Shown here: piece by piece, positions 1 to 55,525 of the stretch
How positions within the stretch are numbered: the first letter of the stretch is position 1
Layout of the letters: every line of letters begins with the position of its first letter
Source: an uncultured Chloroflexia bacterium
GTDB taxonomy: Bacteria > Chloroflexota > Anaerolineae > Anaerolineales > E44-bin32
Assembly (NCBI GenBank): GCA_963789825.1
Contig: CAWBME010000005.1
Location: 257,239-321,238, forward strand
DNA: 64,000 nt
Reading direction: 5' to 3'
The notes under the pieces: model-generated
Told to the model about the DNA's origin: nothing
Seen by the model: the letters and a program-made list of their open reading frames with translations, nothing else
The model's database searches: none
Program-made: the position numbers and the translations under genes

Positions 1-1972
1 AAGTAGAAGCCGGTCCGGCCGTCCGGGTAGGGCAGCGTGCGCTCGACCTGCACGCCGGTGATCTTGGGGTTCTGCAGAATGGCTGCGTACTCCTCCGGCG
101 TGAGCACGAAGAGCAGCTCCCGGGTCAGTTCCCCAAAGTCTGCTAAGAAGCCGTCGGCATTGGAGACTTCGATCGGAGCTTCGTCGGAGATGAAGAAGCG
201 CTTGACGACATCGATCCCGTTGCCCCAGGTCGGCGAGACCAGCACGCGCTGATCGGGATTCGCCGCCACCACTTCGCTCACGGCGCCAAAGACCTGGGAG
301 GCGCCGTACTGCATCTCCATGCCGTACTCGCGATTCCACGTGGGCCCGTTCGCCAGCGCGTCCCGCAGCATGGCGAGGTTCACGCCGGCCAGGGCGACGA
401 ATACGATTGCCGCTACGGCCGGCGCGCTGCGTGGCGCCCGGCGGACCAGCCACTCCAGCGGCAGATCTACCCCAATGGTCACCAGCATCGTCGCCGGGAC
501 GACGAACGACAGCAGGCGAGTGATGCCTGCCCCGGCCACGGCGCCGGCGAGCGGGACGGCCAGCAGGCAGGCCAGCACGGCGCGATAGGCGGGATCGCGC
601 CAGCGCCGAACGGCCGCGACCAACCCGATCAGAGCCAAGGGCGCCATCCAGCGCGCCATGTGGCCGTAGCCCAACATCGTGTGCCGTGGCAGGTCATGCG
701 CCTGCGGCCAGAACCAATAGGCCGGGCTGATGCCGCGGCCGTAGGCCTGGAGCGAGAACAGGATCTTCCCAGCCAACGGCCCACCCTCCGCCCAGGGGCT
801 GGCCAGGATGCGCAGGATCTCCGGCTGCGCCTCCGGCATCTGCAGGTAGAAGCGCAGGTAGGGAAGCGCCAGAAGGGCCAGAACGAGCACCCCGCGCAGC
901 ACCACCGTGCGCTGGCGGCGATGGTAGGAGAAATCGGACACCACCAGCAGCGCCGCCGTCGCCGGGAGGATGATCTGCCCTGGGCTGTAGGTGTAGAAGG
1001 CCATCGCTCCGAACACCATCGCCAGGTACAGGCTCTTGGGTGACCGCAGCCGGTAGCGCAAGTAGAAATACAGGAAGCAGGCATAGAACGAGACCATCAG
1101 CGTGGTCTCGAAGGCAGTACGCGAGTGCAGGAACCAAGCTGGCACTGCCGAGAACAGGAGCACACCGACCCACCACAGGCGCAGGCGGAAGAAGTCGCGC
1201 AACGCGAAACCCGATAGCGAGCGCCCCGGGAAGGGTGAGCAGGGCAGCGGTGGCCCGCGTCGACGAAGACCGACTTGCCAAACAGCAAATACGGAATGAC
1301 CTGGGCGTAGACCGACAGGCTGAGGTTGAAACGATAGACATTCTGGAAATAGGTCGGGAAGTAGTTGCCGAGGAAGTCGCGAAAACCATCACGCACGAAG
1401 TCCGCCGCCAGCACGGTCTGCACGGCTTCGTCGGTGAAGAAGTAGATCGGGAAGTCGGCTAGGCGGATCAGGCGCAGAGCAAGATAGACCGCCAGCGACA
1501 GCCCGAACAGGACAAGGTCGAAGGCGGGACGCGTGGCAAGAGGACTGCGACCGCCAGTGAGCGGCGCCGACCAGGCGGCGATCTGGGAGCGCAGGCCTGC
1601 CCGCCGAGGGCGCTGCGGTGGCTCCGGCGCTGCAGCCGGGAGCATCTCCAGCTGAGGCTGTGCTGCCACGGAGGGGACTTCGTCCATCGAGGGTGGCGCC
1701 TTCGGGGTGGGCGCCTCGCCCACGGCGTGCTGGAAGATCACTCGCGGCCACTCGCCGGGTTGGGCGGCTTCGACCGTCAGCCGAACCCGGGTGCCGGGGG
1801 GAACCGTCACGCCCAGGGCAACCGACTCCGTGCCCGGAGGTGCGTCCTTCGACGGCTGCTGTTCGAAGGTCAGCTGAGGGCCAGCATCGGGGAGGGTGGG
1901 CTCGCGCCGCCCAGGCTTGCCCCGGCTGGCCTTTCGCCGGCCCTTGGCTCGCTGCCCTTCTCTCGAAGTCAT
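1..1972 (-). CDS. GT-C fold membrane glycosyltransferase, family 39 / ArnT-PMT-like (paralog 1); C-terminus lies beyond window start; two apparent frameshifts near 1200-1260
   Basis: ORF 1097..1972 gives ...FPIYFFTDEAVQTVLAADFVRDGFRDFLGNYFPTYFQNVYRFNLSLSVYAQVIPYLLFGKSVFV. The continuation TRATAALLTLPGALAIGF, then ALRDFFRLRLWWVGVLLFSAVPAWFLHSRTAFETTLMVSFYACFLYFYLRY..., lies in the other two minus frames. The last frame stays open to position 1 (manual translation). Multi-TM pattern typical of ArnT/PMT enzymes. Confidence 0.6.
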
Positions 1973-2017
1973 ACGCGGATCAACACCCTCCGGACCCCGA
2001 CCGCCATCGGCTTGCGA

Positions 2018-2563
2018 CTACTGCAGCGCTTGGCGCACTTCTTGGGTCAGTTCCTCGATGGGCACGTACATCACGCCCCGATTCTCAGCTGCCCCGTAGT
2101 CCTGCAGCCACACCAGCCGGCCGTCTTCATCGACCAGGGCGAAAGTATGTCCGGGCTCGCCCGATGCGACTGCCCACTGCAGAACGCCATAGGCTTCGGA
2201 CACCGAGTGGTCGGCATCACTCAGCATCGGTACGGAGGTGATGCCCAGGGCCTGCGCCTCCGGCGCCATTTCCTCGACGGAGTCGAAGGCGATGCTCAGC
2301 ACCGGGACTCCGAGGGACTGAAACTCAGGATCGTTTTGCAGGTCGACGACCTGCTGCATGCAAGGCGGTCAACCGACCGCCATGTGGAAGAAGAGCAGCA
2401 CCGGGCTGACGCCGGTGAAGTCGGATAGAGCGACCTGGGCGCCGCCGACCGCCGGCAGCGAGAACCCAGGCGCCTCATCGCCGACCTGCAGTCCGGCCGC
2501 AGGAGCGGACCGGCACCCGGCCAGGGCGAGCGCAGCGAAGAAGGCGAGTACCGTTGCACGCAT
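2018..2563 (-). CDS. Exported lipoprotein, thioredoxin-fold redoxin/peroxiredoxin-like; probable selenoprotein with U-P-P-C redox motif (TGA at 2369-2371 read as Sec)
   Basis: ORFs 2369..2563 and 2018..2359 share one frame and are split only by TGA. The joined sequence is MRATVLAFFAALALAGC...VSPVLLFFHMAVG-U-PPCMQQVVDLQNDPEF...GHTFALVDEDGRLVW. It has a lipobox (LALAGC) and a redoxin-like core, and the stop codon sits at the CxxC first-Cys position. Confidence 0.7.
2338..2354 (-). promoter_or_regulatory. Candidate SECIS hairpin 14 nt 3' of the in-frame UGA
   Basis: The minus-strand RNA GCAGGUC-GUC-GACCUGC forms a perfect 7-bp stem with a G/U-containing loop. Its position relative to the UGA is compatible with bacterial SECIS elements. 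Confidence 0.4.
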
Positions 2564-2635
2564 GGCTTCTCCTCAGGGGGCTGGCCCGGCTGTGCCGGCA
2601 TCGTTCCGATCTGGCCCGCCCTCACCGCCGACATT

Positions 2636-4610
2636 CTACTCGGACACCACCCAGGCCAGGATGGGCGGATTGCCGGGCATCTCCTCGAGGGCGATTTCTG
2701 CCCCGGTAGGATATGCTGCGCGGATCCGTGGGAGGATGTCCTGCTTCTCCAGAAGGAAGACGAAAGCATAGGGTGCAGATCCTGCCGGGCAATCCTGGCT
2801 GAGGGGCCAGGCGCCGTCACAGACGGGACGGCCCTGGATCAGGTAGTTCAGACTGGGGAAATTGGCGAAGCTCAGGCGCGGCTCGCCGAAGAGCACAACG
2901 CCGGTTTCCGGTGGAAGCTCGGCGGCAAACTCACCAACCACCCGGGCGGCGTAGGTAGCACTGTCGCCGTAGGCCCCGGCTGGGATGGCCTCGACGAAGA
3001 AGAAATGGGCTTCCCGCACAGCTACCAGCGTCACTGCCTGCAATCGTGCAGATGGCGACCAAACGCCGCAGCGCAGGGGAGGGAATTCCTCTGGCTTGCT
3101 CAACGATCCAGGCCGGGGCGCATGCGGCGATCATCGCTAGCACCGGCAAGATGCCCTGCATGCGGTGCCCGTTGGGAGCCTCCACGCTAAGGGTCCCGAC
3201 GAGGATCGCGCCCGTGAGCGCGCTGAGCAAGATCAACGAGCGCGGGTCGCGGAGGTTGCGCAGCAGGAGCAAACTGCCCAGGCAGAAGAGCACGGCGCTG
3301 AGTGGGAAGAGCATCGGCTGCGTCGGGTGATAGATGCCGCGAATCGGGACCGCCACCAGCCCGAGCACAGAGGTCCAGAACTGCGTCGGCAGCTCGCCCT
3401 GCGAGAACACGCGTGGGCCGTCTCCACCGGACAGCAGGCCTGAGATGTCGGCGACGGCCACGCCGCTCAAGGGGGCGGTGAACTCGTTGGGATGCGCCAC
3501 GAAGAAGAGCGTCAGCGGCAGGACCGTAACCAGACTCACCAGGACCAGGCTGAGCACTCCCTGCACCCGGTCTCGGGCGGGCCAGGTCATCGCAAGGATC
3601 ACCAGCCATAGCGGCACAGCCAGCACCAGCAGCCGGCCCGTTGGATAGAACAACTGCCCAAGCCCGATGGCGAGGCCGGAGAGAAGGAAGGCCCAGCGGG
3701 CGTTGGTCGTCCAGGCGACCCAGAGCGCCCCGATCACCAGCGCCAGGAAGAAACCGTCCCAGACGTTGTTGACCGCGATCCGGCTGAACATCAGGTGGAC
3801 GTGGGAGCCGGCCACGAGCAGCGCCGCGAAAGCCCCGTGAGCCCGGCCGTATAGACGCGAGCCCGTCCAGAAGGTAGCCAGCACGGCCAAGACCCCACCG
3901 ACGGCAGAGGGCAAGCGGGCAGCGAGCAGCGTCGGCCCCAGCCATCGCTGGGACAGGCTGACCAGCCAGAAGTAGAAGGAAGGGAAGGAGTGCCACGCCG
4001 TGCCGAACAGATTGGAGCGCGTTGCGCGGAGGAACTCCAGCCCGGTGATGGCTCCCGAGCCCTCGTCGCCGTTGACAGCGAAGGGGATGGTGTCCATCCG
4101 GTACAGACGCAGCGCCAGGGCGAGCAACCCGAGGCCGATCGCCAACGCCAGCGGGACGAAGGACTTGCGGTCAAGGTGCGGGCGCTCGCCTCGGTTCCAC
4201 AGGCCGGCCGCAGTGAGCACGATCCCACCGGCCCACAACCATCCGTGCATCGTCGAACGCGCCATGGCTTCATCGCCGGTCGCAGAGGCGGCGCCGAGCG
4301 CCAACAGCAGCCCATTGAACAGCAGCACGACCTGCGGTGGCGAGACGCCCAGCCAGCGCCCTAGGCGCTCCACCCCGGCCCATAGTGGCCGGAACCAGCG
4401 CCCGTCGTCGACCTCGAGCCCCAGGAAGAACAGCGTCAGCCCGGCGCCCAGAATCAGGGCGTTGATCAGGACTGACTGCGTTCCCCACAACAGCGCCAGG
4501 CCGACTGCTGCGAGGGCGAAACCGTCGAGCAGACAGATCGTCTGCTCATTGGCAAGCTTGCGCGATGGGGGAGTCTCCGAGTCAGCGGTTTGGAGGCTCA
4601 GCACGGCCAA
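2636..4610 (-). CDS. GT-C fold membrane glycosyltransferase, family 39-like (paralog 2); apparent frameshift near 3100
   Basis: The 559-aa ORF 2931..4610 is multi-TM (…RLYRMDTIPFAVNGDEGSGAITGLEF…HSFPSFYFWLVSLSQRWLGPTLLAARLPSAVGGVLAVLATFW…). The soluble C-terminal domain continues in ORF 2636..3103 in another frame. Confidence 0.65.
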
Positions 4611-26974: not shown

Positions 26975-27240
26975 CAAACCCCATGTCACCGTGGCGGGGG
27001 GCGCTCGGGATGACACAAACCCCATGTCACCGTCGCAGGGCGGGCGCTCGGGATGACACAAACTCCATGTCACCGCTGGCGGGGCGGGCGCTCGGGATGA
27101 CACAAACCCCATGTCACCGCCGCAGGGCGGGCGCTCGGGATGACACAATCGCCAGGTCACCGTGGCGGAGCGGACGCTCGGGATGACAGAGGGTGCTGCG
27201 CTCGGGGTGACAGCGGGGGTGCGCTCGGGATGGCGGCGAG
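26960..27240. repeat. Tandem array: six units of 41-44 bp (GCGCTCGGGATGACACAAACCCCATGTCACCG + ~10 nt) followed by two shorter ~23-bp units
   Basis: Unit starts read at 26960, 27001, 27044, 27088, 27131, 27174, 27198 and 27221. Each unit can fold as GATGACA...TGTCACC. The array ends about 150 bp before the gyrA start. Confidence 0.85.
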
Positions 27241-27392
27241 GTGACATGCTCGGGGGACAAGGGCACGCTGTGCTTGGGAGGGCCGAAGGAAGCGGAGATG
27301 TCCGCCAACGTACCCCGAATCCCGGTCCCCGGGGTATAATTCCATTTCGGCCGCGGTCCCCCCGAGTCCCGCACAACGAGTTGACATAAGAG

Positions 27393-29875
27393 ATGGAAAT
27401 CGGCACTGTCCAACAGGTCGATATCGACGAGCAGATGCGTGGGGCGTACCTCGACTACGCCATGAGCGTGATCGTGGCGCGCGCCCTGCCGGACGCCCGC
27501 GACGGCCTCAAGCCGGTTCACCGCCGCATCCTGTACGCCATGCACGACATGGGGATCCGCTCGAACACGCCCCACCGCAAGTCGGCCCGCATCGTGGGCG
27601 AGGTGCTCGGCAAGTACCACCCGCATGGGGACGTGGCGGTGTACGACACCATGGCCCGCCTGGCGCAGGACTTCTCGATGCGCTACCTGCTGATCGACGG
27701 CCAGGGCAATTTCGGCTCGATCGATGGCGACCCGCCGGCGGCCATGCGTTACACCGAGGCCCGCCTCAATCGCCAGGCGGAAGAATTGCTGCTCGATATC
27801 GACAAGGAGACGGTTGATTTCGTCGACAATTTCGACGCCTCCCTGCAGGAGCCGACGGTGCTGCCCGCCCGCCTGCCCAATCTACTGCTCAACGGAACCA
27901 CGGGCATCGCCGTCGGAATGGCCACCAACATCCCGCCGCACAACTTGCGCGAGCTGGCCAGCGCCATTCGCTTCCTGGTCGATGAATACGAGCGGATGGA
28001 CGAGATCGGCGTCGAAGACCTGATGCGGCATGTGCCCGGGCCGGACTTTCCCACCGGCGGCACGATCATCGGCATCGAGGGCATCAAGCAGGCCTACAGC
28101 ACCGGCAAGGGGCGCCTGGTCTTGCGAGCCACTGCCCACATCGAGGAGATGTCGGGCGGCCGCCACCGCATCGTGATCACCGAAATCCCCTACCAGATCA
28201 ACAAGACCGGGCTGATCGAACGGATTGCCGAGCTGGCGCGCGATGGCAGGCTCGACGACATCTCGGATCTGCGGGATGAGTTCGATCGGCGTGGCATGAG
28301 CCTGATCGTCGAGCTGCGTCGCGGAGCGCAGCCGAAGAAGGTCCTGAACAAGCTTTTCAAGTACACCCCGCTGCAGACGACCTACGGCGTGCAGATGCTG
28401 GCCCTGGTCGACGGCGAGCCGCGGGTGCTTTCGCTCAAGCGCGCCCTGCAGGTCTACATCGAGCACCGCCGGGCGGTGATCACCCGCCGCTCGCAGTTTG
28501 AACTTAGGAAGGCCCAGGCCCGGGCCCACATCCTGGATGGCCTGCTGATCGCCCTGGCCAACATCGACGCCGTCATCGAGACCATCCGCAAGTCGAAGGA
28601 CAGCGAAGCCGCCAAGGCCCGCCTGATGGAGCGCTTCTCGCTCAGCGAGCTCCAGGCGGTGGCCATCCTCGACATGCAGCTGCGCCGTCTGGCGGCGCTC
28701 GAGCGCGAGAAGATCGAGACGCGAACACAAAGAAGTTCTCAAGCGCATCGCCCAGCTGGAGGACCTGCTGGCGCATCCCAAGAAGCTACTGGGGGTCATC
28801 AAGGAAGACCTGAGCCAGGTGGAGGCTAGCCTACGGCGACGATCGCCGCTCGAAGATCGCCATCGACGCCTCGGAGGAGCTGCGCGAGGAAGACCTGGTG
28901 GCCGACGAGGCGGTGCTGGTCAGCATCACCGAGCGCGGCTACGTCAAGCGGGTGGCGGCGACGGCCTATCGACGCCAAGGCCGTGGCGGGCGCGGTGTCA
29001 TGGGTCACTCGATGCGCGGCGAAGATGAAGTGATGATGCTCTTCCCGGCGCGCTCGCTCGATACGGTGCTGTTCTTCTCCGATCGCGGCAAGGTGTACTC
29101 GGAGAAGGCCTACCAGATCCCGGACGCCAGCCGGACGGACCGCGGCGTGTCAATGGTCAACATCCTGGCGGTCGAGGCGGACGAGACGATCACCGCCACG
29201 GTGACCGTGCCCAACTTCGAGAGCGCCAACTACTGCACCATGGTCACGCGCAAGGGCAAGATCAAGCGCGTGCAGCTCTCCGAGTTCGCCGCCGTCCGGC
29301 CGTCGGGGTTGATCGCCATCTCGCTCGACAAGGGCGACGAACTCGGCTGGGTCAGGCTGACCAGCGGCAAGAACGAGATCATCCTGGTCACCGAGGCCGG
29401 CCAGGCGCTGCGCTTCCACGAGAAACTGGTGCGCCCGATGGGGCGCCCGGCTGCCGGCATGCGCGCCATCGCCCTGCGCGCCAAGGATCAGGTGGCCAGC
29501 ATGGACGTTGTCGAGGCCAAGGGGGATTTGCTGGTTGTGACCAAGAAAGGCTATGGCAAGCGCACGCCCCTCAAGGAGTACACCCCCAAGGGACGGGCTA
29601 CCAGCGGCGTGCTGACGCTGAGCAAAGAGAAGATGAGCCTCACCGGGCGGATCGCCGCCGCGCGTGTGGTGCACGCCGAGGACGACCTGACGATCATCTC
29701 CAGCGGCGGGATCATGCTGCGCACCAAGGTCGGCCAGGTGAAGCAGGCCGGGCGGGCGACGATGGGCGTGCGCGTGGTCGACCTGAAGGACAAGGACGAG
29801 GTGGGCTCGGTGGCCATCATCTCGGCCAAGGACCTCGAAGCGGCGGGGGTCGAGCAGAACGGGGCCGGCGGCTGA
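27393..29875 (+). CDS. gyrA: DNA gyrase subunit A; two apparent frameshifts near 28720 and 28830
   Basis: ...[32 protein letters not shown]...MRYTEARL.... The three frames join as ...LEREKIE / [36 protein letters not shown] / [26 protein letters not shown]..., followed by C-terminal beta-pinwheel repeats. Confidence 0.92.
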
Positions 29876-30007: not shown

Positions 30008-30174
30008 AGGAGCGGGTGACATCCTTCTCTCCCCTTCGGCACATGCCCAAGCGATAATCCCAGAGAATAGTGGTATTCGCTTATGCGGATGAAAGCTGGT
30101 CCCTGAGCACGGGTGGGCGGCTTCATGAGCCGCCGCATCTGCCAGCGAAGTTCCGCCTCAAGGGAGACAAGCGC

Positions 30175-31634
30175 ATGCGACGTCGCTACGTGTGGATCCT
30201 GGGGCTTGCCGTCACCCTGGCGTTGATCCTCATCCCGATCGCCATCTTCTTCCCCCGCGCGGAGCCGGCGCGCGATGACCCGGCGGCAGCGCTCACGGTG
30301 CGCAAGCCGCCGACCGACCATCAGCCGCTGATGACCGGCCCTTACACCACCGGCGAAGACGTGACGCGCGCCTGCCTGGAATGCCATGCCGACGAAGCCG
30401 ACGAAGTGATGCAGACCGTTCATTGGACCTGGGAGAGCAAGCCCTACCCGATTCCCGGCCACGATGAGCTGGTGACGATCGGCAAGAAGAACAGCCTCAA
30501 CAACTTCTGCATCGGCATCCAGTCCAACTGGGCCGGATGCACCTCCTGCCACGCCGGCTACGGCTGGGAAGATGCCGACTTCGACTTCGGCGACAGCGAG
30601 AAGGTCGACTGCCTGGTGTGCCATGACAACACCGGCACCTACCTGAAGGGACAGGCAGGACTGCCGGCTGAGGGCGTCGACCTGGCCTACGTGGCGCAGA
30701 GCGTCACCTGCCCGACCCGGGAGAACTGCGGCTCGTGCCACTTCTCCGGGGGCGGCGGCAACGCCGTCAAACACGGCGACCTCGATCAGCACCTGATCTA
30801 CCCGACCGAGAACCTGGACGTGCACATGGGCGGCCAGGACATGCTGTGCACCGACTGCCACCAGACCGAGGATCACCAGATCCGCGGCCGGGCGATCTCG
30901 GTCAGCTTCGACCAGGAGAACCAGGCGCATGTGCACGGATTGCCACAGCCAGGCGCCGCATGAGGACGACCGCATCAACACCCACCTGGCCAGCGTCGCT
31001 TGCCAGACCTGCCACGTCCCGGCTGGCGGCACAGGCGATCCGACCAAGATGACCTGGGACTGGTCGACCGCCGGACAAGATCGGCCGGAGGACGAGCACG
31101 AGTATCTGAAGATCAAGGGCTCGTTCTTCTACGAAGAGCGACTTCACGCCGGAGTACTTACTGGTACAACGGCATCTCCGATCGCTATATCCTGGGAGAT
31201 ACGTTTGATCCAAGTCAGCCGCTCAACATGAACCCGCTGGCCGGCGATATCAATGACCCGGACGCCCGCATCTTCCCCTTCAAGGTGCATCGGGCCAAGC
31301 AGCCGTACGACACGCGTCTACAACTACCTGCTCCAGCCCAAGACCTTCGGCGAGGGCGGGTTCTGGACGGAGTTCGACTGGGACCAGGCGCTCCGGATGG
31401 GCTCCGAGGCCGTCGGCCTACCCTTCAGTGGGGAGTACGGCTTCGCCGAGACCGAGATGTACTGGCCGCTGACGCACACCGTCGCACCGGCCGGACAAGG
31501 CACTGCTGTGCGCCGACTGCCATTCACCGGAGGGGCGGCTCGACTGGCAGGCGCTCGGCTATCCCGGTGACCCGATGGAATGGGGCGTGCGGAGTCCGGC
31601 CGCTCCAGGCGAGACCGCGCAGGTGACACCATGA
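30175..31634 (+). CDS. Membrane-anchored octaheme c-type cytochrome, tetrathionate reductase (Otr) family-like; four apparent frameshifts (near 30925, 31148, 31315, 31495)
   Basis: N-terminal TM segment (RRRYVWILGLAVTLALILIPIAIFF). Eight CxxCH motifs: CLECH, CTSCH, CLVCH, CGSCH, CTDCH, CTDCH, CQTCH, CADCH. Blocks such as TVHWTWES and IGKKNSLNNFCIGIQSNWAGCTSCH recall the Otr family from memory. AGGGAG RBS; the stop overlaps the next start (ATGA). Confidence 0.7.
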
Positions 31635-34385
31635 TCTTGCGCGGCAGGCTCCTCCATCCGATCTTCGGCGTGCTCGTCTTCGTCGGGCTGCTGCTGATCG
31701 TCGGCGGCCTCCAGGCGTTGGACGCCTCCGCTGCGCTGAGCTTCAAGCCCGCCGCAGCAGACCTCTCCCCTTCACCCCGATGTGGCGCTGTTGGATGCGG
31801 ATGGCGTGAATGTGTTGGAGAGCGGCAAGCCCGTCTCCACGATGCGCACCTGTGGCGAGTGCCACGACACCGAGTTCATCGCCGCCCATTCCGGCCATTC
31901 GCAGGCTGGCCTCGATAGCTTGGCGCCCGCCGGGGAAACCTCGACCGGGCGTCCCTGGGACATGAGCGAGGGGATCTTCGGGAAGTGGGACCCGATGGTC
32001 TATCGCGTGCTGTCCGAGAGCGGCGGCGCGGAGCTCGACCTAGGGACGGCCGGCTGGGTCCAGACCATCGGGGCCCGCCACGTCGGCGGGGGGCCGGCGG
32101 CGCTCAGCCGCGACGGCACGCCCCTGCAGGAACTGCCAGTCCGCTCCGACGATCCCGAAACCAGCTGGCTCGACCCCGAAAGCGGACAGGTGCGGGCTTG
32201 GGATTGGGAGCAGTCCGGCGTCGTCGAGATGAATTGCTTCCTGTGCCATACGGCCGAGCCCGACAATGCGGCGCGCATCGAGGCCCTGCAGCAGGGTTCC
32301 TTCGGCTGGGCCAACACGGCCACGCTGCTGGCAACCGGCCTGGTCGACCGCACAGGCGATACCTATCGCTGGAACCCATCGGCCTTCGCCGAAGACGGGA
32401 CGGTCACCGCCGCCCAGCTGGCGATCCAGGACCCGGTCAACGAGAACTGCGGTCAGTGCCACGGGCTGGTGCACGATGAGGGCGACGACCCGATTGTAGC
32501 GGTCAGTTGCGACCCGGCGATTCGCCGCACGGTGACCACCGGCCAGATCATCGCCCCCGAGCGGCTCTCTGACTCGGGGATGAACCTGGTCGGCAAGGAA
32601 GACCTAACCCGGCCGTGGGACATCCATGCCGAGCGCCGGGTGGAGTGCACCGACTGCCACTACTCGCTCAACAACCCGGTCTACTTCCAGGAGGCCGAGA
32701 GCGCCCGCCCGGAGCACCTGACCTTCGACCCGCGCCGTCTCGAACTGGGTGAGTACCTGTACCAGCCGTTGCACGATCTGGCGCGTGGGCCAAGCCTCAG
32801 CGATCCAGTGACGCCGGAACAGGCCGGCTCGATGCGCCGCTGCGACTCTTGTCACAGCATCGAGTCCACCCATGACTGGTTGCCCTACAAGGACCGCCAC
32901 CTGGCAGCCTTGAGCTGCGAGACCTGCCACGTGCCGGATATGTACTCCAACGCCGCCCGGCAGGTCGACTGGACCGTGCTGCGCCCTGACAGCTTCGCCC
33001 GCGGCATCTGCCGTGGCACAGACACCACAGTTGGCGGACAGCCGGTCATCACCGGCTTCCAGCCGGTGTGGATGCCGCGCCAGGAACCGGATGGCAGCGC
33101 CCCGCTGACCCCCTACAACCTGGTGACGACCTGGTTCTGGGTTGCCGGCGATCCTGAGCAGCCGGTTCGCCTGACCGAACTGGAGGGCGCCTGGTTCGTG
33201 GGCGATGCCTATGCCCCGGAAGTGATTGCCGCCCTGGATGCGGATGGGGACGGAGCGCTGGCGGACGTGGAACTGCAGCTGGACACGCCGGAGAAGGTGG
33301 AGCTGATCGCCGGTCGCCTGGCGGCACTCGGGGTGGAGAACCCGCGGATCACCGGCGAGATCCAACCCTTCGGCATTCACCACACCATCGCCAGCGATGA
33401 GTGGGCGATCCAGGACTGCCAGGACTGCCACAGTGACCAGTCACGCCTCACCCAGTCCTTCGACCTCGCCGCGTACGTGCCTCCCGGCGCCGAAGCGGCG
33501 TTTGTTGGCGGTTCGACCGCCATCACCTCGGGCGAGATCGTGGCCGCCTCCGACGGCGGGTTGGTGTATCAGCCCGACACCGGGTCGCGCCAGTTGTATG
33601 TTCTGGGACACGACCGTGCCGAGTGGGTCGACTGGCTGGGCGGGCTGCTCTTCGTCGGTGTGCTGATCGGGATCGTGATCCATGGCGGCTTGCGCGTGGT
33701 TTCGGCGATGCGCCACCGCGGGGCTGCCGCCGAACCGGCCACCGAGACCGTGCGCATGTACGGTGTCTACGAACGCCTGTGGCACTGGCTTCAGACCTTC
33801 GCCATCGTGGCGCTGCTCTTCACCGGCCTGGTGATCCACCGTCCCGACAGCTTCGGCATGTTCAGCTTCCGCGGCGTTGTTCTGGTCCACAACATCCTGG
33901 CGGCGATCCTGGTGGTGAACGCCGGCCTGTCGCTCTTCTATCACCTGACCAGCGGGGAGATCCGCCAGTTCGTCCCGCGCCCGGTCGGCTTCTTTGACCA
34001 GGCCATGCTGCAGGCCAAGTACTACCTGAAGGGCATCTTCCGCAATGAACCGCATCCGTTCGAGAAGACGCCGGGCAGGAAGCTCAACCCGCTGCAGCAG
34101 GTGACCTACTTCGGGATCCTCAACGTACTGCTGCCGCTGATGATCCTGACCGGCATCCTGATGTGGGGCGCGCAACGCTGGCCGGAGTACTCGGCCTTGA
34201 TCGGCGGACTAACCGTCCTCGGCCCGGTGCACGCCGGCGTCGCCTGGATGCTGGCGGCTTTCATTGTCGGGCACGTCTATCTGACCACCACTGGGCCCAA
34301 GCCCTTGAGCAGCCTGCAGGGAATGATGTTCGGCACAGAGGCAGTCGAGAAGGGTCCTCTGGAGACCCAGGGAGGGAAGGCATGA
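31631..34385 (+). CDS. Heptaheme cytochrome c fused to a C-terminal di-heme cytochrome b membrane domain (PhsC / FdnI / Ni-Fe hydrogenase cyt b family-like); one apparent frameshift near 31778
   Basis: Signal anchor MILRGRLLHPIFGVLVFVGLLLIVGG. Seven CxxCH motifs: CGECH, CFLCH, CGQCH, CTDCH, CDSCH, CETCH, CQDCH. A C-terminal domain of about 230 aa has 4-5 TM helices and four spaced His (RLWHW, LVHNIL, GPVHAG, IVGHVYL). Confidence 0.75.
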
Positions 34386-34957
34386 CCACAAGCTCCGAGA
34401 TCGGGACGGCCCCGAAGCGAGGACTCCTGCACGCGCTCACCGGCCGGCCGGAAAGGCCATATGCCAATTCCTACGCCGCCGGTGCGTTGCTGGGGATCGT
34501 GCTGTTCCTGTCGTTCTTCATCACCGGCAACGGCCTGGGCGCTTCCGGTGGGTTGAACCGGATGATCGTCTTCGTCGAAGACCTGATCGCGCCGGCCCAC
34601 ATCGACCGCACGCCCTACCTGATCGAGATGGCGGGCGGGGTGCGCAACGCCCTCGATAGCTGGGTGGTGTTCGTCGCCCTGGGGGCGCTGGTTGGCGGCT
34701 TTGCCTCTGGTTGGTTCAACGGTCGGCTGAAGGCGGAGACCAAGAAGGGGCCGCGCATTTCGGTGCGCACCCGCTGGGCGACGGCTTTCGTCGGCGGAGC
34801 GATCATGGGCTATGGCGCCCGCTTCGCCCGCGGTTGCACCTCCGGCCAGGCGCTATCCGGCGGAGCGACGCTCTCTGTCGGAAGTTGGGCGCTGATGTTC
34901 TGCATCTTCGGCAGCGCCTACGCCCTGGCGTACTTTGTGCGCCGTTTGTGGACATAG
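34382..34957 (+). CDS. YeeE/YedE family sulfur-compound transporter half-protein
   Basis: The ATG overlaps the upstream stop. Multi-TM with ...FITGNGLGASGG... and ...GYGARFARGCTSGQALSGG... (sulphur-transport repeat with a conserved Cys). Confidence 0.8.
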   Translation: MTTSSEIGTAPKRGLLHALTGRPERPYANSYAAGALLGIVLFLSFFITGNGLGASGGLNRMIVFVEDLIAPAHIDRTPYLIEMAGGVRNALDSWVVFVALGALVGGFASGWFNGRLKAETKKGPRISVRTRWATAFVGGAIMGYGARFARGCTSGQALSGGATLSVGSWALMFCIFGSAYALAYFVRRLWT

Positions 34958-34967
34958 GGAGGTCAGT

Positions 34968-36197
34968 ATGCCGCCGTTTCCGCTCCACCTCGAGTCCCTG
35001 GTCGGCCAGTACGGCAGCTACCTGGTCTTCTTGCTGATCGGTATCGCCTTCGGCTATGCGTTGGAGATTGCCGGCTTCGGCAACTCCATCAAGCTGGCCA
35101 ACCAGTTCTACCTGAAAGACATGACCGTGCTCAAAGTGATGTTCACGGCGATCGTCGTGGCCATGGTGCTGATTTTCGGTGCCAGTGCCCTCGGCTTGCT
35201 GGACGTCAACCTGATCTGGGTCAATCCCACCTACCTGATCCCGGGGCTCGTCGGCGGCCTGATCATGGGCGTTGGCTTCATCGTCGGCGGCTTCTGCCCC
35301 GGCACCTCGGTGGTGGCAATGGCCACCTGGAAGATCGACGGCCTGTTCTATGTGCTGGGCACGCTGTTCGGCATCTTCCTGTTCGGTGAGACCGTCGACA
35401 ACTTCAGCGCCTTCTGGAACTCGACCTACATGGGCCGGTTGATGCTGCCCGAATGGCTGGGCGTGGATACCGGCGTGGTCGTGGTGGGCGTCGTGCTGAT
35501 GGCGATCGGTATGTTCGCCGGCGCCGAGCAGCTGGAGCGCATCTTTGGCAAGAAGGACCTGAAGGCCGAGCCGCGCCGGCGTTTCGTCGGCGCCGGGGCA
35601 CTGGTCGGGTTGGCGGTGGTGGTTGCGCTGATCGGTCAGCCGACCACCAAAGACCGCTGGCAGGCCGTATCCAGCGTCAAGGAAGCGGCGCTTGCCGAGC
35701 GGCAGGTCCAGATCGAGCCCGGGGAGCTGCTGAACCTGCTGCACGACCACGAGCTCAAGCCGATGCTGCTCGATGTGCGCGACGAGGCAGACTACAACCT
35801 GTTCCATCTCGAACGGGCGATGCACGTGACGCCGGAGATGTTGCCCGAGCGGCTGGAGGAGTTCCAGCTCGAGGGCCCGACGACGGTGTTCGTGGTGATG
35901 AGCAATGATGAGCAGGCGGCAACAGAAGTATGGAAGACGCTGGTGGCCGAGAGTGTGCCCAACGTCTACGTCCTCTCGGGCGGCGTCAACGGCTGGCTCG
36001 ACACCTTTGCCGCCGAGGATGAGCGCATCCAGCCGGCGGAGCCCGGCGCGCCGGACGCGCTGCGCTACACCTTCGCCGCGGCGCTGGGCTCAACCTACCC
36101 GGCCGCCGATCCGAACCCCGGGGAGTATGCGTTGGAGTACCCGACGAAGATCAAGCTAGAACTGAAGCGCGGCCCGACCGGCGGCGGCTGCGGTTGA
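34968..36197 (+). CDS. YeeE/YedE family transporter half fused to a rhodanese-homology domain; C-terminal GGGCG tail
   Basis: GGGAGG RBS. ...IMGVGFIVGGFCPGTSVV... belongs to the membrane domain. The rhodanese-like region (...MLLDVRDEADYNLFHLERAMHV...VFVVMSNDEQAATEVW...VLSGGVNGW) has Ser where the catalytic Cys is expected. The protein ends ...KIKLELKRGPTGGGCG. Confidence 0.75.
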   Translation: MPPFPLHLESLVGQYGSYLVFLLIGIAFGYALEIAGFGNSIKLANQFYLKDMTVLKVMFTAIVVAMVLIFGASALGLLDVNLIWVNPTYLIPGLVGGLIMGVGFIVGGFCPGTSVVAMATWKIDGLFYVLGTLFGIFLFGETVDNFSAFWNSTYMGRLMLPEWLGVDTGVVVVGVVLMAIGMFAGAEQLERIFGKKDLKAEPRRRFVGAGALVGLAVVVALIGQPTTKDRWQAVSSVKEAALAERQVQIEPGELLNLLHDHELKPMLLDVRDEADYNLFHLERAMHVTPEMLPERLEEFQLEGPTTVFVVMSNDEQAATEVWKTLVAESVPNVYVLSGGVNGWLDTFAAEDERIQPAEPGAPDALRYTFAAALGSTYPAADPNPGEYALEYPTKIKLELKRGPTGGGCG

Positions 36198-40741: not shown

Positions 40742-41263
40742 TCAGCTCTCGCAGGGGATCGTCAGCTCCTGACCCGGGAAGATCAGCCAGGGGGAGACAA
40801 TGTTGTTGGCGGCGGCGATCTCCTTCCAGAAATCCGGATCATAGCCCAGGTTGATCGAGATGCGGAACAGCCGATCCCCTGGCTTGACCACGTACTTGTA
40901 CGGGCAGCTGGGCCGGGCGGTAGGGACGGCTGTCGCCACCAGCGCCGGGGTCGGGGTCACCAGCGGGGTCGTCAGAAGCCCCGTGGGCGTCGGTGGGGCG
41001 GCCGTCGGGACAGTTCCACCGGGTGCCTGCGTCGCCTGGGGCTGTGCGCCGCCGCCCGCCGCCTGGGCAGTCTGTGTCAGCAGCGCGTAGCGCACGGCCT
41101 CCATCGTGGCCTGCAGGCCGGAAGAGGCCCCGGGGGTGCCGGCAGGCGTGCCGGCGCCTCCCGTGGCGGGTGGCGGGGTGGACGCGCTCCGGCTGCAGGC
41201 GGAGGCGGTCAGAAGCAGCAGCAGCGCCAGCAGCAAGTAGGGCAAACGGCGCGAGACCAACAT
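40742..41263 (-). CDS. LysM-domain lipoprotein with a Pro/Thr/Ala-rich linker
   Basis: Lipobox LLLTASAC. C-terminal LysM domain YKYVVKPGDRLFRISINLGYDPDFWKEIAAANNIVSPWLIFPGQELTIP. Confidence 0.8.
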   Translation of the reverse strand: MLVSRRLPYLLLALLLLLTASACSRSASTPPPATGGAGTPAGTPGASSGLQATMEAVRYALLTQTAQAAGGGAQPQATQAPGGTVPTAAPPTPTGLLTTPLVTPTPALVATAVPTARPSCPYKYVVKPGDRLFRISINLGYDPDFWKEIAAANNIVSPWLIFPGQELTIPCES

Positions 41264-49379: not shown

Positions 49380-49777
49380 GGCTGACCACTCCCAAATCCG
49401 AGTAACTCGGGTGATTTTACCGGCCACCACGCCGACCGTCAAGCTCCGGAGGAGATCCCGGCAAAGCAGGACGCCCGGTCCTTACCCCCGCCTCCGTTGG
49501 AGCGAGCCCAGGCGCGCCCGCCCGGGCTGACCTGGCCTCCTGCCTCACTGGCGTGCCCGTCTCCGCCGTCGGGTGCGGCCTCGCGCATGCCAGCCCAGCG
49601 GATTGCAGGCCGTCAGCGGAACAGCGCACCTTCGGGGAGCGACGGACCGAAGCGATGTGAAGTGGAGTGAGCGAATGGGCATGGCCGCGGCCGGGGCGCT
49701 CCGGGCCCCGACCTGCGACTTCGACTGACTCAGCGCGTTGCGCTCAAGGGTAGCTGCGCAGGCGTGAGCCTTCGAGG

Positions 49778-50275
49778 TCAAGAGGGCCCAGGGTGTGACG
49801 GCTCTTCCTGGTGCAGCTCCCGCAGGATCTCCAGGATCTCGGCGTTCTCGGGAATCTCCGACATGGAATGACCGTAGTGGGCATAGCGGGCGGTTCCCTG
49901 GCGGTCGACGATCACCTGCGCCGGCATGCGCCCCAACTTGAACAGGTTGACCTCCTGCCCGAACAGCCGGAGCACCTTGTGCTCGGGATCGGGAAGGCCG
50001 ATGAACGGCAGGTCGTGCTCGGCCCAGTAGGCGCGAAAGGCGTCGGCGGTGTCTGGCCCAACGACGACGATCTCGGCGCCGGCGGCGACAAACTGGGGAT
50101 GGTCCAGGCGCAACTGCGCCATGTGCCGGCGGCAGAACGGTCAGGTGAAGCCGCGATTGAAAACCAGGACGAGCGCCTTCTCCCTCGACAGGTCGGACAG
50201 GCGGAACGACTTGCCAGTGAAGTCCTGGAGTTCGAAATCCGGCGCCGGCAGACCCAGGGCGGCCTTGGGGCTCAT
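49778..50275 (-). CDS. PRX_like2-type thioredoxin-fold protein; probable selenoprotein with U-P-F-C redox motif (TGA at 50141-50143 read as Sec)
   Basis: MSPKAALGLPAPDFELQDFTGKSFRLSDLSREKALVLVFNRGFT-U-PFCRRHMAQLRLDHPQFVAAGAEIVVVGPD...MPAQVIVDRQGTARY.... The TGA is in frame and sits at the first Cys of the FxRGxWCPxC motif. GGAGGTG RBS before ATG 50275. Confidence 0.7.
50114..50135 (-). promoter_or_regulatory. Candidate SECIS hairpin 5 nt 3' of the in-frame UGA
   Basis: The minus-strand RNA CUGC(C)GCC-GGCACAU-GGCGCAG forms a 7-bp stem with one bulged C and a 7-nt loop beginning GG. Confidence 0.4.
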
Positions 50276-51286
50276 GGCAACACCTCCACGTTCGATGCGA
50301 CTGCAGCACGGGTGAACGAATTCGAGATGGCCCTGCAGGAACTGCCGCAGCACGGGCAGCAAGGCCTGCGGGCACTCCTCCTGCGGAAGGTGGCCGCACT
50401 CGGGCAGCACGACCCATCCTGCCCCCGGGATCAGCTCGGCGACGCGCTGGCTGTCCTCGGGCGGTACGATCTGATCGCTGGCCCCGGTGACCACCAGTGT
50501 GGGAACCGAGACCTCGGGCAGGCGGGCTTCCAGCCCAAGCGGCTGGCTGGCTCGCCTCAGCTCCCACAGCGCAACGTCCCAATGGTCGGCCCGGAGAGGC
50601 TTATCGTATCCCTGGCGGATCTCGGGCGTGATGCGGCTTGGATCGTGCCAGGCCAGGTCCAGCAACATCCGACTTCTCCCAATGAAGGTGCGCGCAATCA
50701 GCGGGCCGAGGCGATCGATCGGCGGCAGGCGATAGAGCCACGTCGGGCCCGGTGGCCCCCCAACCTCGAGCACCGCCGGGGAGATCAACACCAGGCCGAG
50801 CACGCGTTCCGGATGCTCCAGCGCCGCTTGGACGGCGATCGCTCCCCCGGCGGAGTTGCCCACCAGCACGGCCTGTTCGATAGACTGCGAGTCCATCAAT
50901 TCCAGCAGCAGGTCGACCTGCGCCTCGGCGCTGTATGGGCTCTCAGCCTGCCACGTCCCGGGCAGCGGGCGTTCGGTCAGTCCGAACGCCGGACGGTCGT
51001 AGGCGATCACGCTGCCGGACTGTGCCAGAGGCTCGAGCACCTCGTGCCAACTGAACAGGCTGGCGCCAAAGCCGTGCAGCAGGATGATGGCCGGCTCGCC
51101 ATCGCCGGCGGCTTTGAAGTGCACGCGCAGGTCGTTGGCCGTGGCGAACTGGCTGTCGGGATCGGCCAGACTGGCGGGAGGCACGCTGTCAGGCAGTTCT
51201 GGAATCGGGATCACCATGGGCAGTGCCAGGAGAGCCAGCAGCAACAGACCCAGCAGGATGGCAACCCCGCGGATGGCGGTGGTCAT
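50276..51286 (-). CDS. Alpha/beta hydrolase (membrane-anchored); as assembled it has no stop codon before the downstream redoxin gene
   Basis: MTTAIRGVAILLGLLLLALLALPMV..., ...AIILLHGFGASLFSW..., ...VLVGNSAGGAIA..., ...PECGHLPQEE.... The frame runs on through ...FVHPCCSRIERGGVA into MSPKAAL.... Confidence 0.7.
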
Positions 51287-52036
51287 GGCCGGGCGCCGTC
51301 GACTTCGGCCAGAAGGGCAAGGGTTGCTTGCACGACCAGGTCCTGCTGCTGGTCGGGCGAAATGGCCGCCGGGTGCGAGCCGGGCTGCGGCGGATAGCGG
51401 CCGAATTGGGCGTGATTCCCTCCGACGATCTCGACGTAGTGGGTGTGCAGCCGGAATCACGGCACGACGAGCGCGGCGATGGTCTCGGGCTGGACCAGCC
51501 GATCGTCCGTTGCCGTAGATCGATGGTGCGCGGGAATGGTCAGCCGGGAGAGGTCATCGTCATCGGCGGGAATGGCGGCCCACAGCACCAGGCCGGTCGC
51601 ACGCGTTCGGGTGTTGCGGACAAAGCGGGCGGCGGCAATCGCCCCGCCGAGGGAGTGCCCGGCCAATGACCCACTGCCGAATTGCGGGAAGGCCTGCATC
51701 GCGGCCTGACGGCCGCGTTGGGCGCCAGCAAGGCAAGATTGAACGGCATGGGGACGGTCAGGATGGTGATAGCCTCGATCGGCGATCGCCGCGCACCGTT
51801 CGGCGTAGATGCGCGGATCGACCCGGGCGCCCGGGTACAGGATCGAGACCGGTGGCGCGCGCTCGGTGCCGGCAGGAAGGCGATCCATGGATCGAGCTGC
51901 ACGGCCAGTCTGGCTTCGGCGACCAGCGCGGCAAGCGCCTCGGGCTCCGGTTGCGCCGGGGTCCAGACCCAGATGGCGCACCCACCAGCAGCGCCGCTCA
52001 GGGCAGCCCGCCAGGAGGATGAGCAATACGCTCCAT
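51283..52036 (-). pseudogene. Alpha/beta hydrolase paralog B, heavily disrupted (about five frame changes plus an in-frame TGA at 51457-51459)
   Basis: Pieces in three frames align to paralog A: ...QLDPWIAFLPA / ERAPPVSILYPGARVDPRIYAERCAAIADRGY / ITILTVPMPFNLALLAPNAA / AAMQAFPQFGSGSLAGHSLGGAIAAARF...LVLWAAIPADDDD...ALVVP-stop-FRLHTHYVEIVGGNHAQFGRY...GARP. Confidence 0.5.
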
Positions 52037-54576: not shown

Positions 54577-55525
54577 TCACGTGGCGGCGGCCTCGTCCAG
54601 GGCGGCAACCTCTTGGGCGCTCAACTGCCACCCCATGGCACCGGCGTTCTCCGTGGCTTGGGCGGCGTTCTTGGCGCCAGGTATGGCCACGGCGCCTTTG
54701 GCGATCACCCAGTTCAGCGCCACCTGCGAGGGTGTCTTGTCTGCGTGTTCCCGCCCGATCTGCCGGAGCAGGTCGAGAAGGCGTGCCAGACGGTCTGAAG
54801 GAACACGAGACGCCATCCAGCGCCGCATGCCGGGAGGCCGGTTGCCCTCACCGTACTTCCCGGTCAGCAGGCCTTGGGCGAGGGGACTGTAGGCAATCAA
54901 GGTGATCGAGTGCTGCCGGCAGGCGTCCAGCAGGCCGTTGGTCTCCGGCTGACGCGCCAGCAGGCTGAAGCGGACCTGGTTGGAGGCCAGCGGCAGGCCA
55001 TACCGGTCCAACGCCTCGGCCGCCTCCAGCATCTGCTGTCGGTTGTAGTTGGAGACGCCGATCGCGCGCCACCAGCCCCAACTCGTGGGCCTCGGCCATG
55101 GCCTGCATCCAGGTGTGGATGGCGACCGGCGGCAACGGCTGATGAATCTGATACAGGTCCACTCGCCGCGCGCCGATCCGCTCGAGACTGCGCCGCAGGG
55201 CGTTGAGCAACTCTCGCCGGCGCAGCCTCCAGGGAAAGGGCATGAACTTGGTGGCCAGGACGACCTGGCCCGGGGATTGGCGCAGATACTCTCCGAGCAG
55301 ACGCTCCGAAGTCCCATGGCTGTACACCTCGGCCGTGTCCACCCAGTTCACGCCGGCCCGGCGTGAGACGTCGAAGGCCTGCTGCACATCGTGCAGCTGA
55401 TGCGTCGAGCCATAGGACCAGAACCAGCGGTCGCCCCACTGCCAGGCGCCCAGCCCGATGGGGCTGATGCGGACCTCGGACTTCCCCAGGGGCAGCGTGC
55501 TGTCGAACTCGGATCGAAGACTCAT
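54577..55525 (-). CDS. Aldo/keto reductase; apparent frameshift near 55068
   Basis: The N-terminal half MSLRSEFDSTLPLGKSEVRISPIGLGAWQWG...VNWVDTAEVYSHGTSERLLGE...VDLYQIHQP... is in ORF 54848..55624. The C-terminal half ...RAIGVSNYNRQQM...LIAYSPLAQGLLTGKY...ALNWVIAKGAVAIPGAKN... is in ORF 54577..55317. Confidence 0.8.

Follow-up and report, generated by a model that had tools for sequence, protein, structure and literature searches.

Does an in-frame TGA within a redoxin gene end the protein, or is it read as selenocysteine (Sec)? The question is raised by a 165-codon frame on the minus strand of a 64-kb stretch of DNA from an uncultured Chloroflexia bacterium, the full length of which is referred to here as the window. 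The frame has a single interruption, a TGA in the context KALVLVFNRGFT-TGA-PFCRRHMAQLR. An earlier note, made from the letters of the window alone, had described a minus-strand gene with its own GGAGGTG ribosome-binding site and ATG, in which the TGA takes the place of the first Cys of a CxxC motif. All these elements are present as described (Table 1): the motif reads FNRGFT-TGA-PFC, and rare homologs have Cys at the site. From the comparative evidence set out below, the gene product is very probably a selenoprotein of about 18 kDa, located in the cytoplasm, with a BCP/AhpE-like fold and a U45-P-F-C48 active site, the UGA being recoded via the hairpin at 50121..50106.

The in-frame TGA and its conservation

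The two parts of the frame share a codon-position signature typical of this genome's genes, with GC contents at the three positions of 0.61/0.43/0.86 5' of the TGA and 0.73/0.40/0.86 3' of it (the window is 67% GC). When Cys is placed at the TGA the protein is recognised by Pfam as AhpC-TSA (PF00578; E = 3.5e-23, 82.3 bits against a cutoff of 26) and as Redoxin (E = 7e-17). It scores 21.8 bits, below the cutoff of 27, with AhpC-TSA_2 (PF13911), which is the nearest Pfam proxy for PRX_like2 (CDD cd02970), the putative label given by the earlier note; that family is reportedly described in CDD as having a CxxC with the second Cys at the peroxidatic (Cp) position, like the motif found here. No NCBIfam family reaches its trusted cutoff on the redoxin. 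The best is the SelL-related redox protein family NF040769 (SelL_rel_redox), with 79.6 bits against a cutoff of 120, so that the window protein falls outside formal membership; nine other members of its own family score 57-77 bits against the same cutoff.

Relatives were gathered in three sets, comprising the best 80 loci from GTDB contigs with one genome per species, 78 metagenome loci retrieved with an alignment of the Cys forms as query, and the 120 best database protein hits to the redoxin. In all, 157 sequences have the TGA, and 146 of these are distinct when compared over the 60 nt from the TGA onward. The homologous codon is TGA in 78 of the 80 species genomes, within the motif F-N-R-G/T-F-x-TGA-P-F/Y-C-x-x-H-M-A-Q-L-R, and despite the Cys-form query it is TGA in 76 of the 78 metagenome loci and TGC in the other two, giving the Sec form in 154 of the 158 loci retrieved in these two sets. 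The carriers are mostly Chloroflexota/Anaerolineae, including the cultured Longilinea arvoryzae KOME-1, with others labelled Actinomycetota, Deltaproteobacteria and KSB1; Smithella-like and other deltaproteobacterial metagenome-assembled genomes (MAGs) carry this redoxin subfamily. Where homologs have a sense codon at the site it is a Cys codon, never one for Trp or Gly. Cys at this column, on which the earlier note had made its reading depend, is seen in 11 of the 120 closest database proteins and in the DNA of seven rare Cys forms, which have TGC or TGT at the Sec position.

Codon analysis of 77 aligned genes shows the frame to be under purifying selection both 5' and 3' of the TGA, with synonymous sites free to change. 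Within the 44 codons 5' of it residues such as A11, P12, F14, L16 and L26 are conserved with near-maximal synonymous variation, indicating that the upstream part is translated in the same frame and selected at the protein level. The nearest relative, a contig of 94% DNA identity (L081; ENA contig MnO2_Bac_MAG_2_o_Anaerolineales), has the same TGA, frame and hairpin and differs mostly by silent changes; to judge by it, the source organism is an Anaerolineales-like member of the Chloroflexota. TGA is also the stop codon of 21 of the 27 Pfam-supported genes in the window, the redoxin gene included, which argues that there has been no genome-wide reassignment of TGA. Judged from this pattern of conservation, the interrupting TGA is almost certainly a genuine selenocysteine codon.

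The same codon has marked the database record of the family. The closest database proteins (75-96% identity) are all 114-residue fragments beginning at a Met seven codons past the TGA, showing that gene callers cut the relatives exactly as they would cut the window gene, and the 111-residue 'peroxiredoxin' of Longilinea arvoryzae KOME-1 (GenBank GAP15703.1; locus L075 10001-10480, NZ_DF967972 at about 3.9087 Mb) is a post-TGA fragment. The 120 best hits include 46 full-length entries with Trp at the site, 11 with Cys and about 38 post-TGA fragments. One of the Trp entries (P0022) was checked on its contig, where the codon is TGA; the Trp appears because the TGA was translated with another genetic code, and such calls reflect the switching of genetic code by gene callers on short contigs. 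Public annotation of this redoxin family, across the database proteins P0002-P0085, is systematically wrong, with fragments and Trp readings.

The hairpin 3' of the TGA as predicted SECIS

If the UGA is recoded, a selenocysteine insertion sequence (SECIS) would be expected nearby, and the candidate is a hairpin that starts 19 nt 3' of the UGA, inside the coding sequence. Counting the U of UGA as 1, its consensus is U23-G-G-C-G-C [A29-G-U-U32] G-C-G-Y-C-A38. The codons that it spans behave unlike those elsewhere in the 77 aligned genes. A53 is GCG, Q54 is CAG and L55 is TTG in 77 of 77, and R56 is only ever CGC or CGT; the fixed TTG of L55 stands apart from most other conserved Leu columns, where CTG is used most often, and codon entropy is 1.7-2.4 bits at the other conserved Ala, Leu and Arg columns. 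Synonymous sites are thus fixed in the Ala-Gln-Leu-Arg stretch and free elsewhere, which indicates conservation at the nucleotide level beyond what the protein needs.

Among the 146 distinct sequences, pairs 26-35, 27-34 and 28-33 do not vary and pair 24-37 is G-C in 145, while pair 25-36 is G-C in 123 and G-U in 23. The outermost pair, 23-38, is U-A in 119, U-G in 20, C-G in 2 and mismatched in 5, and is U-U in the window sequence. Overall 98.9% of the cells are paired, the only variants being G-C to G-U, U-A to U-G and one C-G double change, and the 14-nt core GGCGCAGUUGCGYC is intact in 145 of the 146 distinct Sec-form sequences. This hairpin is the RNAalifold consensus of the 146 sequences and is included in the 60-nt fold of the window sequence; the 16-nt element taken alone has a folding energy of -9.6 kcal/mol (z = -3.7). 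The bacterial SECIS (bSECIS) model specifies a loop of 3-9 nt, a stem of 4-16 bp and an energy of at most -7.5 kcal/mol (PMC13188914, Fig. 2 legend), with a G at loop position 1 or 2, as a rule preceding G or U, and 16-37 nt between UGA and loop (PMC13188914). The element agrees with it on every count, having a loop of 4 nt, a stem of 6-7 bp, G at loop position 2 followed by U, and a UGA-loop distance of 25 nt in addition to the energy given above.

The Cys forms provide a natural comparison. In the seven of them the hairpin codons vary (GCA, GCC; CAA, CGC; TTA, CTG; CGG, CGA), and the core is intact in just one, against 145 of 146 Sec forms (Fisher p = 3e-9). The Cys form with the intact core (L082, 3104-3148) and another with a single GCG-to-GCA change (L087, 3130-3174) both have TGC and lie amid close Sec-form relatives; they look like recent Sec-to-Cys conversions in which a remnant of the SECIS persists, a phenomenon that has been described (PMC1794560). 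The case for the predicted SECIS is made jointly by the invariance of synonymous sites, the fit to the bSECIS model and the loss of the core in Cys forms.

The earlier note had proposed a different helix for this role, CUGC(C)GCC and GGCGCAG closing the loop GGCACAU. That helix is present, starting 5 nt after the UGA; in the window sequence it has 7 bp and a GG-starting loop, and it forms part of the minimum-energy fold of a 52-nt stretch. It and the conserved hairpin are mutually exclusive because both use the same GGCGCAG, so that recoding could be real with this helix at 50135..50114 as the SECIS, or with the two overlapping hairpins alternating. We regard either version as unlikely. The complete helix occurs in only 37 of the 146 distinct relatives, its inner three pairs, which use the two variable codons after UPFC, being unpaired in 38, 44 and 37 of the 77 genomes, or about half. 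The outer four pairs (Y9-G30, U10-A29, G11-C28, C12-G27) are possible in all relatives, but they consist of coding nucleotides that are invariant (the Cys codon UGC, and GCG-CAG). The loop starts 13 nt after the UGA, short of the 16-37 nt of the bSECIS model (PMC13188914), and both RNAalifold on the 146 sequences and the 60-nt window fold select the hairpin at 50121..50106 instead. The helix at 50135..50114 is thus probably not the SECIS, and we conclude that the note was right in expecting a SECIS-like hairpin after the UGA and wrong in the helix that it chose.

Some further features of the same region were recorded. All 146 distinct Sec forms, and six of the seven Cys forms, have G at position 18 (window 50126), the third base of an otherwise variable codon, the fifth after the UGA. 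The Cys48 codon (position 12, window 50132) is TGC in 145 of the 146 distinct Sec forms and in 76 of the 77 aligned genes, and RNAalifold suggests a 3-bp mini-helix, UGC/GCA, directly 5' of the predicted SECIS. Rfam at gathering thresholds matched a tRNA-Glu and nothing else in the whole window, and a permissive Rfam scan of 49700-50400 returned chance matches only.

Other readings of the TGA

Several results weigh against reading this UGA as Sec through the hairpin at 50121..50106. The scans revealed no selA, selB, selD or tRNA-Sec gene in the 64-kb window or in about 170 flanking loci: ARAGORN, run on the window and 60 related loci, detected no tRNA-Sec, Pfam scans of 33 of the longer window ORFs, which were not exhaustive, gave no SelA, SelB or SelD domain, and tblastn with an E. 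coli SelD probe had no match in the window or any locus, a weak negative. A covariation test on the hairpin found three of the six pairs invariant and the observed score reached by 40 of 500 shuffles, with almost no true covariation. Classical covariation is nearly absent because the helix hardly varies; the pairing is read from invariance and is not proven, and conservation of the peptide HMAQLR itself accounts for some of the invariance. The folding energy of the 60-nt stretch is no better than that of shuffled sequence (z = -0.27), a measure that is uninformative in this GC-rich sequence. Finally, Sec incorporation in the subfamily is itself a computational prediction.

The lack of sel genes and tRNA-Sec in the window scans would suit a TGA that acts as a stop in this organism, the gene being a relic or a source of fragments (44 residues and/or 114 residues from Met52), for example after loss of the Sec machinery, and gene callers do routinely produce the 114-residue fragment. 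This is improbable in view of the one-frame purifying selection on both halves of the frame and of the mostly silent differences from the 94%-identical contig, which retains TGA, frame and hairpin. Moreover the same 64 kb holds a second TGA-containing redoxin with a conserved hairpin of its own. Relatives that lose Sec switch to TGC or TGT and their hairpin accumulates changes, whereas the window hairpin is intact, and the 114-residue fragment would be deprived of the whole active-site motif and of the first beta strands of the fold.

Still less probable is insertion of one of the standard amino acids (Trp, Gly or Cys) at the TGA through a reassigned code or near-cognate read-through. The Trp in 46 of the 120 database translations would favour this view, but the one such entry that was checked (P0022, locus L162) has TGA in its DNA and was translated with another code, TGA remains the terminator of most Pfam-supported genes in the window, and homologs with a true sense codon have Cys. 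Trp at the nucleophile position of a CxxC would in addition abolish redox chemistry, and an amino-acid reading leaves the constrained hairpin unexplained. That the TGA arose by an error of base calling or assembly, or by a recent mutation that turned the gene into a pseudogene, is the least credible explanation of all. The assembly does contain errors, seen in a split gyrA and an extra C at 50330-50329 (see below), but these are indels, the error type that the earlier note had held to be dominant, and not substitutions; and the nearest relative has the same TGA, as do 154 loci that were assembled independently.

Fold, proposed mechanism and known families

What would a Sec residue do at this site? 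In HMMER alignments to solved structures, U45-x-x-C48 falls on the CxxC of ResA/TlpA-type oxidoreductases; against the T-P-G-C motif of BCP, C48 coincides with the peroxidatic Cys and U45 with the Thr. R116 is invariant and aligns with the catalytic Arg of peroxiredoxins. The peroxiredoxin triad Thr-Cp-Arg is incomplete, as C48 and R116 are present and the Thr position is Sec or Cys, with a variable residue preceding it. A naturally occurring Cys homolog (P0052) that is 54% identical and has the same FNRGFTCPFCRRH motif was modelled with AlphaFold2; the model has a pLDDT of 90.8 and carries the redox motif at the start of helix 46-57. Its best structural matches are BCP and AhpE peroxiredoxins (TM 0.83-0.87), with ResA lower at TM 0.76. 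On the evidence of the alignments and this model the redoxin is a peroxiredoxin-fold protein in which the active site has been converted to a thioredoxin-like UxxC. No signal peptide was found in the redoxin, and it is for this reason probably cytoplasmic.

In the mechanism that we propose, the UGA would be read as selenocysteine during translation, with UGGCGC-AGUU-GCGCC acting as a bacterial SECIS. Its small apical loop containing G and U would bind SelB.GTP.Sec-tRNASec and so bring it to the UGA when this codon occupies the A site of the ribosome, as is established for SelB and the SECIS of E. coli fdhF. In the finished protein Sec45, at the N-terminus of the first helix and in the position of the attacking Cys of thioredoxin-type CxxC proteins, would attack a disulfide or a peroxide. 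Cys48, at the peroxidatic position with the conserved Arg116 nearby, would resolve the intermediate by forming an intramolecular selenenylsulfide, which a thioredoxin-type reductant would then reduce. Here we infer the dependence on SelB, the incorporation of selenium in the organism, the substrate and the reductant.

Selenoproteins of this general kind have been foreseen. Kryukov and Gladyshev reportedly predicted Prx-like thiol:disulfide oxidoreductase selenoproteins with UxxC or UxxU motifs in 2004. The Prx-like thiol:disulfide oxidoreductase (PF00578, UxxC/UxxU) is graded as 'predicted with high confidence' (PMC13188914 Table 1), is listed as 'Prx-like 1' in the GOS survey with 225 Sec and 2,740 Cys forms (PMC2398784), and is given for Geobacter, Syntrophus and Desulfotalea (PMC1794560); the Sec trait was already known in Chloroflexi, with three selenoproteins (PMC1794560 Table 2). 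The window protein shares with this family the AhpC-TSA domain, a UxxC with Sec in first place, the existence of Sec/Cys homolog pairs, a stem-loop within the coding sequence just after the UGA, and occurrence in Deltaproteobacteria. The link to published representatives such as WP_010940744.1 of Geobacter sulfurreducens is indirect, running through the Smithella and other deltaproteobacterial MAGs that have this subfamily and through the listing of Syntrophus in the family (PMC1794560). The redoxin fits on every feature tested, and appears to be an addition to this known, computationally predicted Prx-like UxxC family.

It differs from Prx-like 1 in that its subfamily is centred on Chloroflexota/Anaerolineae and is nearly always in the Sec form among the loci retrieved, where the GOS counts are dominated by Cys; almost all of the 146 distinct sequences, which have labels from several phyla, share one and the same 14-nt SECIS core. 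The prevalence of Sec and the constancy of the core, together with the lack of an NCBIfam match at trusted cutoff, could mark a distinct, uncatalogued selenoprotein subfamily, a proposal that we make tentatively and hold to be rather doubtful.

Comparison with other systems locates the protein further. Of the curated families NF040769, which covers relatives of selenoprotein L, a UxxU protein of fish, scores best and aligns over the N-terminal half and the redox motif (profile 1-99 of 173), but the C-terminal half is unaligned and the window motif is UxxC, not UxxU. The likeness to BCP/PrxQ and AhpE (PDB 3drn, 5enu, 1xvw) lies in the fold of the modelled Cys homolog and in the correspondence of Cys48 to the peroxidatic Cys and of Arg116 to the catalytic Arg; unlike them, the window protein has Sec or Cys in place of the Thr of T-x-x-Cp, giving the thioredoxin-like CxxC. 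The E. coli fdhF SECIS has a GGUC loop and a bulged U in its stem. It and the bSECISearch model resemble the window element in having a stem-loop after the UGA within the coding sequence, a small loop with G then U, and a spacing within 16-37 nt. The window element differs from fdhF in its AGUU loop, in lying about 7 nt farther from the UGA and in a stem that has no bulged U. Known Sec-peroxiredoxins, for their part, are TxxU proteins whose Sec occupies the Cp position itself (PMC13188914 Table 1).

A second candidate, neighbouring genes and significance

A second AhpC/TSA redoxin, this one of lipoprotein type, lies at 2563..2018 and, with its own in-frame TGA, is another UxxC selenoprotein candidate (Table 1). 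Cys is at the site in none of its 120 best homologs, two of which read through with Trp while nearly all the others start just after the TGA. Three further loci (L168-L170) keep the TGA and a hairpin GCAGGUC-GUN-GACCUGC, with one G-C to A-U double change in the stem. Both redoxin hairpins have short GC-rich stems and a small G-U loop 25-30 nt from the UGA, so that the comparison of the two suggested by the earlier note does bring out shared features. Its argument that two TGA-for-Cys events reinforce each other gains from the post-TGA fragments and the GU-loop hairpin of this second gene. Both redoxin families occur in at least one genome, a single 1.73-Mb contig being seen in L008 and L168. 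A third candidate, TGA 40744..40742 (PCES-TGA-GP), was rejected as an ordinary gene stop, since a separate gene with its own Met follows.

Table 1. Positions of the redoxin gene, its predicted recoding signals and related features in the window.
Feature	Coordinates	Strand	Details
Selenoprotein gene (predicted), 165 codons	49778..50275	-	ATG 50275..50273; Sec-TGA at codon 45; true stop TGA 49780..49778; U45-P-F-C48 redoxin
Shine-Dalgarno-like GGAGGTG	50281..50287	-	5 nt 5' of the ATG; direct sequence reading; kept in close relative L081
In-frame TGA, predicted Sec codon U45	50141..50143	-	N-terminal position of CxxC-type motif; conservation in relatives
Cys48 codon TGC	50132..50134	-	Partner of Sec45 at the peroxiredoxin peroxidatic Cys position; Cys invariant; aligned to 5enu/BCP TPGC
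Predicted bacterial SECIS core U GGCGC [AGUU] GCGCC U	50106..50121	-	Positions 23-38, within codons M52-A-Q-L-R-L57
Apical loop AGUU of predicted SECIS	50115..50112	-	Positions 29-32
Earlier-note hairpin CUGC(C)GCC / GGCACAU / GGCGCAG	50114..50135	-	Positions 9-16 with 24-30; overlaps the conserved hairpin, mutually exclusive
Upstream alpha/beta-hydrolase ORF	50276..51460	-	Lacks its own stop in this assembly; continues in the redoxin frame to the Sec-TGA (ORF 51460..50141)
Other UxxC selenoprotein candidate, lipoprotein-type AhpC/TSA redoxin	2018..2563	-	FFHMAVG-TGA(2371..2369)-PPC
Hairpin GCAGGUC-GUC-GACCUGC of that candidate	2354..2338	-	Positions 18-34

The alpha/beta-hydrolase ORF directly upstream of the first redoxin would, if taken at face value, be fused to it. 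An extra C at 50330-50329 relative to the nearest relative shifts the hydrolase end into the redoxin frame; in that relative the last hydrolase simply overlaps the redoxin start codon by ATGA, and by this comparison a hydrolase-redoxin fusion was rejected as an indel artefact. Were the extra C real, such a fusion would result, but it is most likely an indel error, as gyrA is also split, into overlapping plus-strand ORFs at 27390-28829 (DNA_topoisoIV) and 28814-29875 (the six-bladed C-terminal domain), and a frameshift in this essential gene points to indel errors in the assembly. The two contigs share the gene order of three alpha/beta hydrolases, redoxin, response regulator, GAF histidine kinase and HMG-CoA reductase. 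The tandem minus-strand hydrolase run lies directly 5' of the redoxin (50276-52026 and beyond), two members having been scanned in the window and three called in the relative (1139-3721). Of the 125 loci with enough upstream sequence, 16 have a homologous hydrolase gene directly before the redoxin, the Cys-form loci L165 and L167 among them; the association is recurrent, not general.

Elsewhere in the window, plus-strand TGA contexts at 55465 and 55772 have the same translation, ARRPARWG-TGA-CGPRTSPG, about 307 nt apart, and minus-strand contexts at 26988 and 27029 share -TGA-HGVCVIPS 41 nt apart; such recurring identical contexts indicate short direct repeats. At 30058-36197 on the plus strand, multihaem cytochromes of the MtrC/MtrF kind cluster with a membrane protein of cytochrome b561 type and with a fusion of Sulf_transp (YeeE/YedE-like) to rhodanese. 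A role in selenium transport has been suggested for YedE-like proteins. A very similar cluster (L168 290-6399) adjoins the homolog of the 2563..2018 selenoprotein candidate in another Chloroflexia genome.

The general picture of selenoproteins is unchanged by these findings, as UxxC Prx-like members have been predicted since 2004. What is mildly notable is the near-exclusive use of Sec in the retrieved relatives, the invariance of the SECIS core across phylum labels and the scale of the misannotation. Should the subfamily prove distinct, its constancy would imply either very strict recognition by SelB or repeated events in which gene and SECIS were transferred horizontally as one, and it could serve as a simple DNA marker for Sec decoding in Chloroflexota and supply engineers with a minimal SECIS of natural origin. 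The invariant 16-nt hairpin would offer a precise target for the study of SelB-SECIS recognition outside Proteobacteria. For the source organism, two apparent gene fragments would become intact selenoprotein genes, and the reading proposed here, if true, implies that it decodes UGA as Sec.

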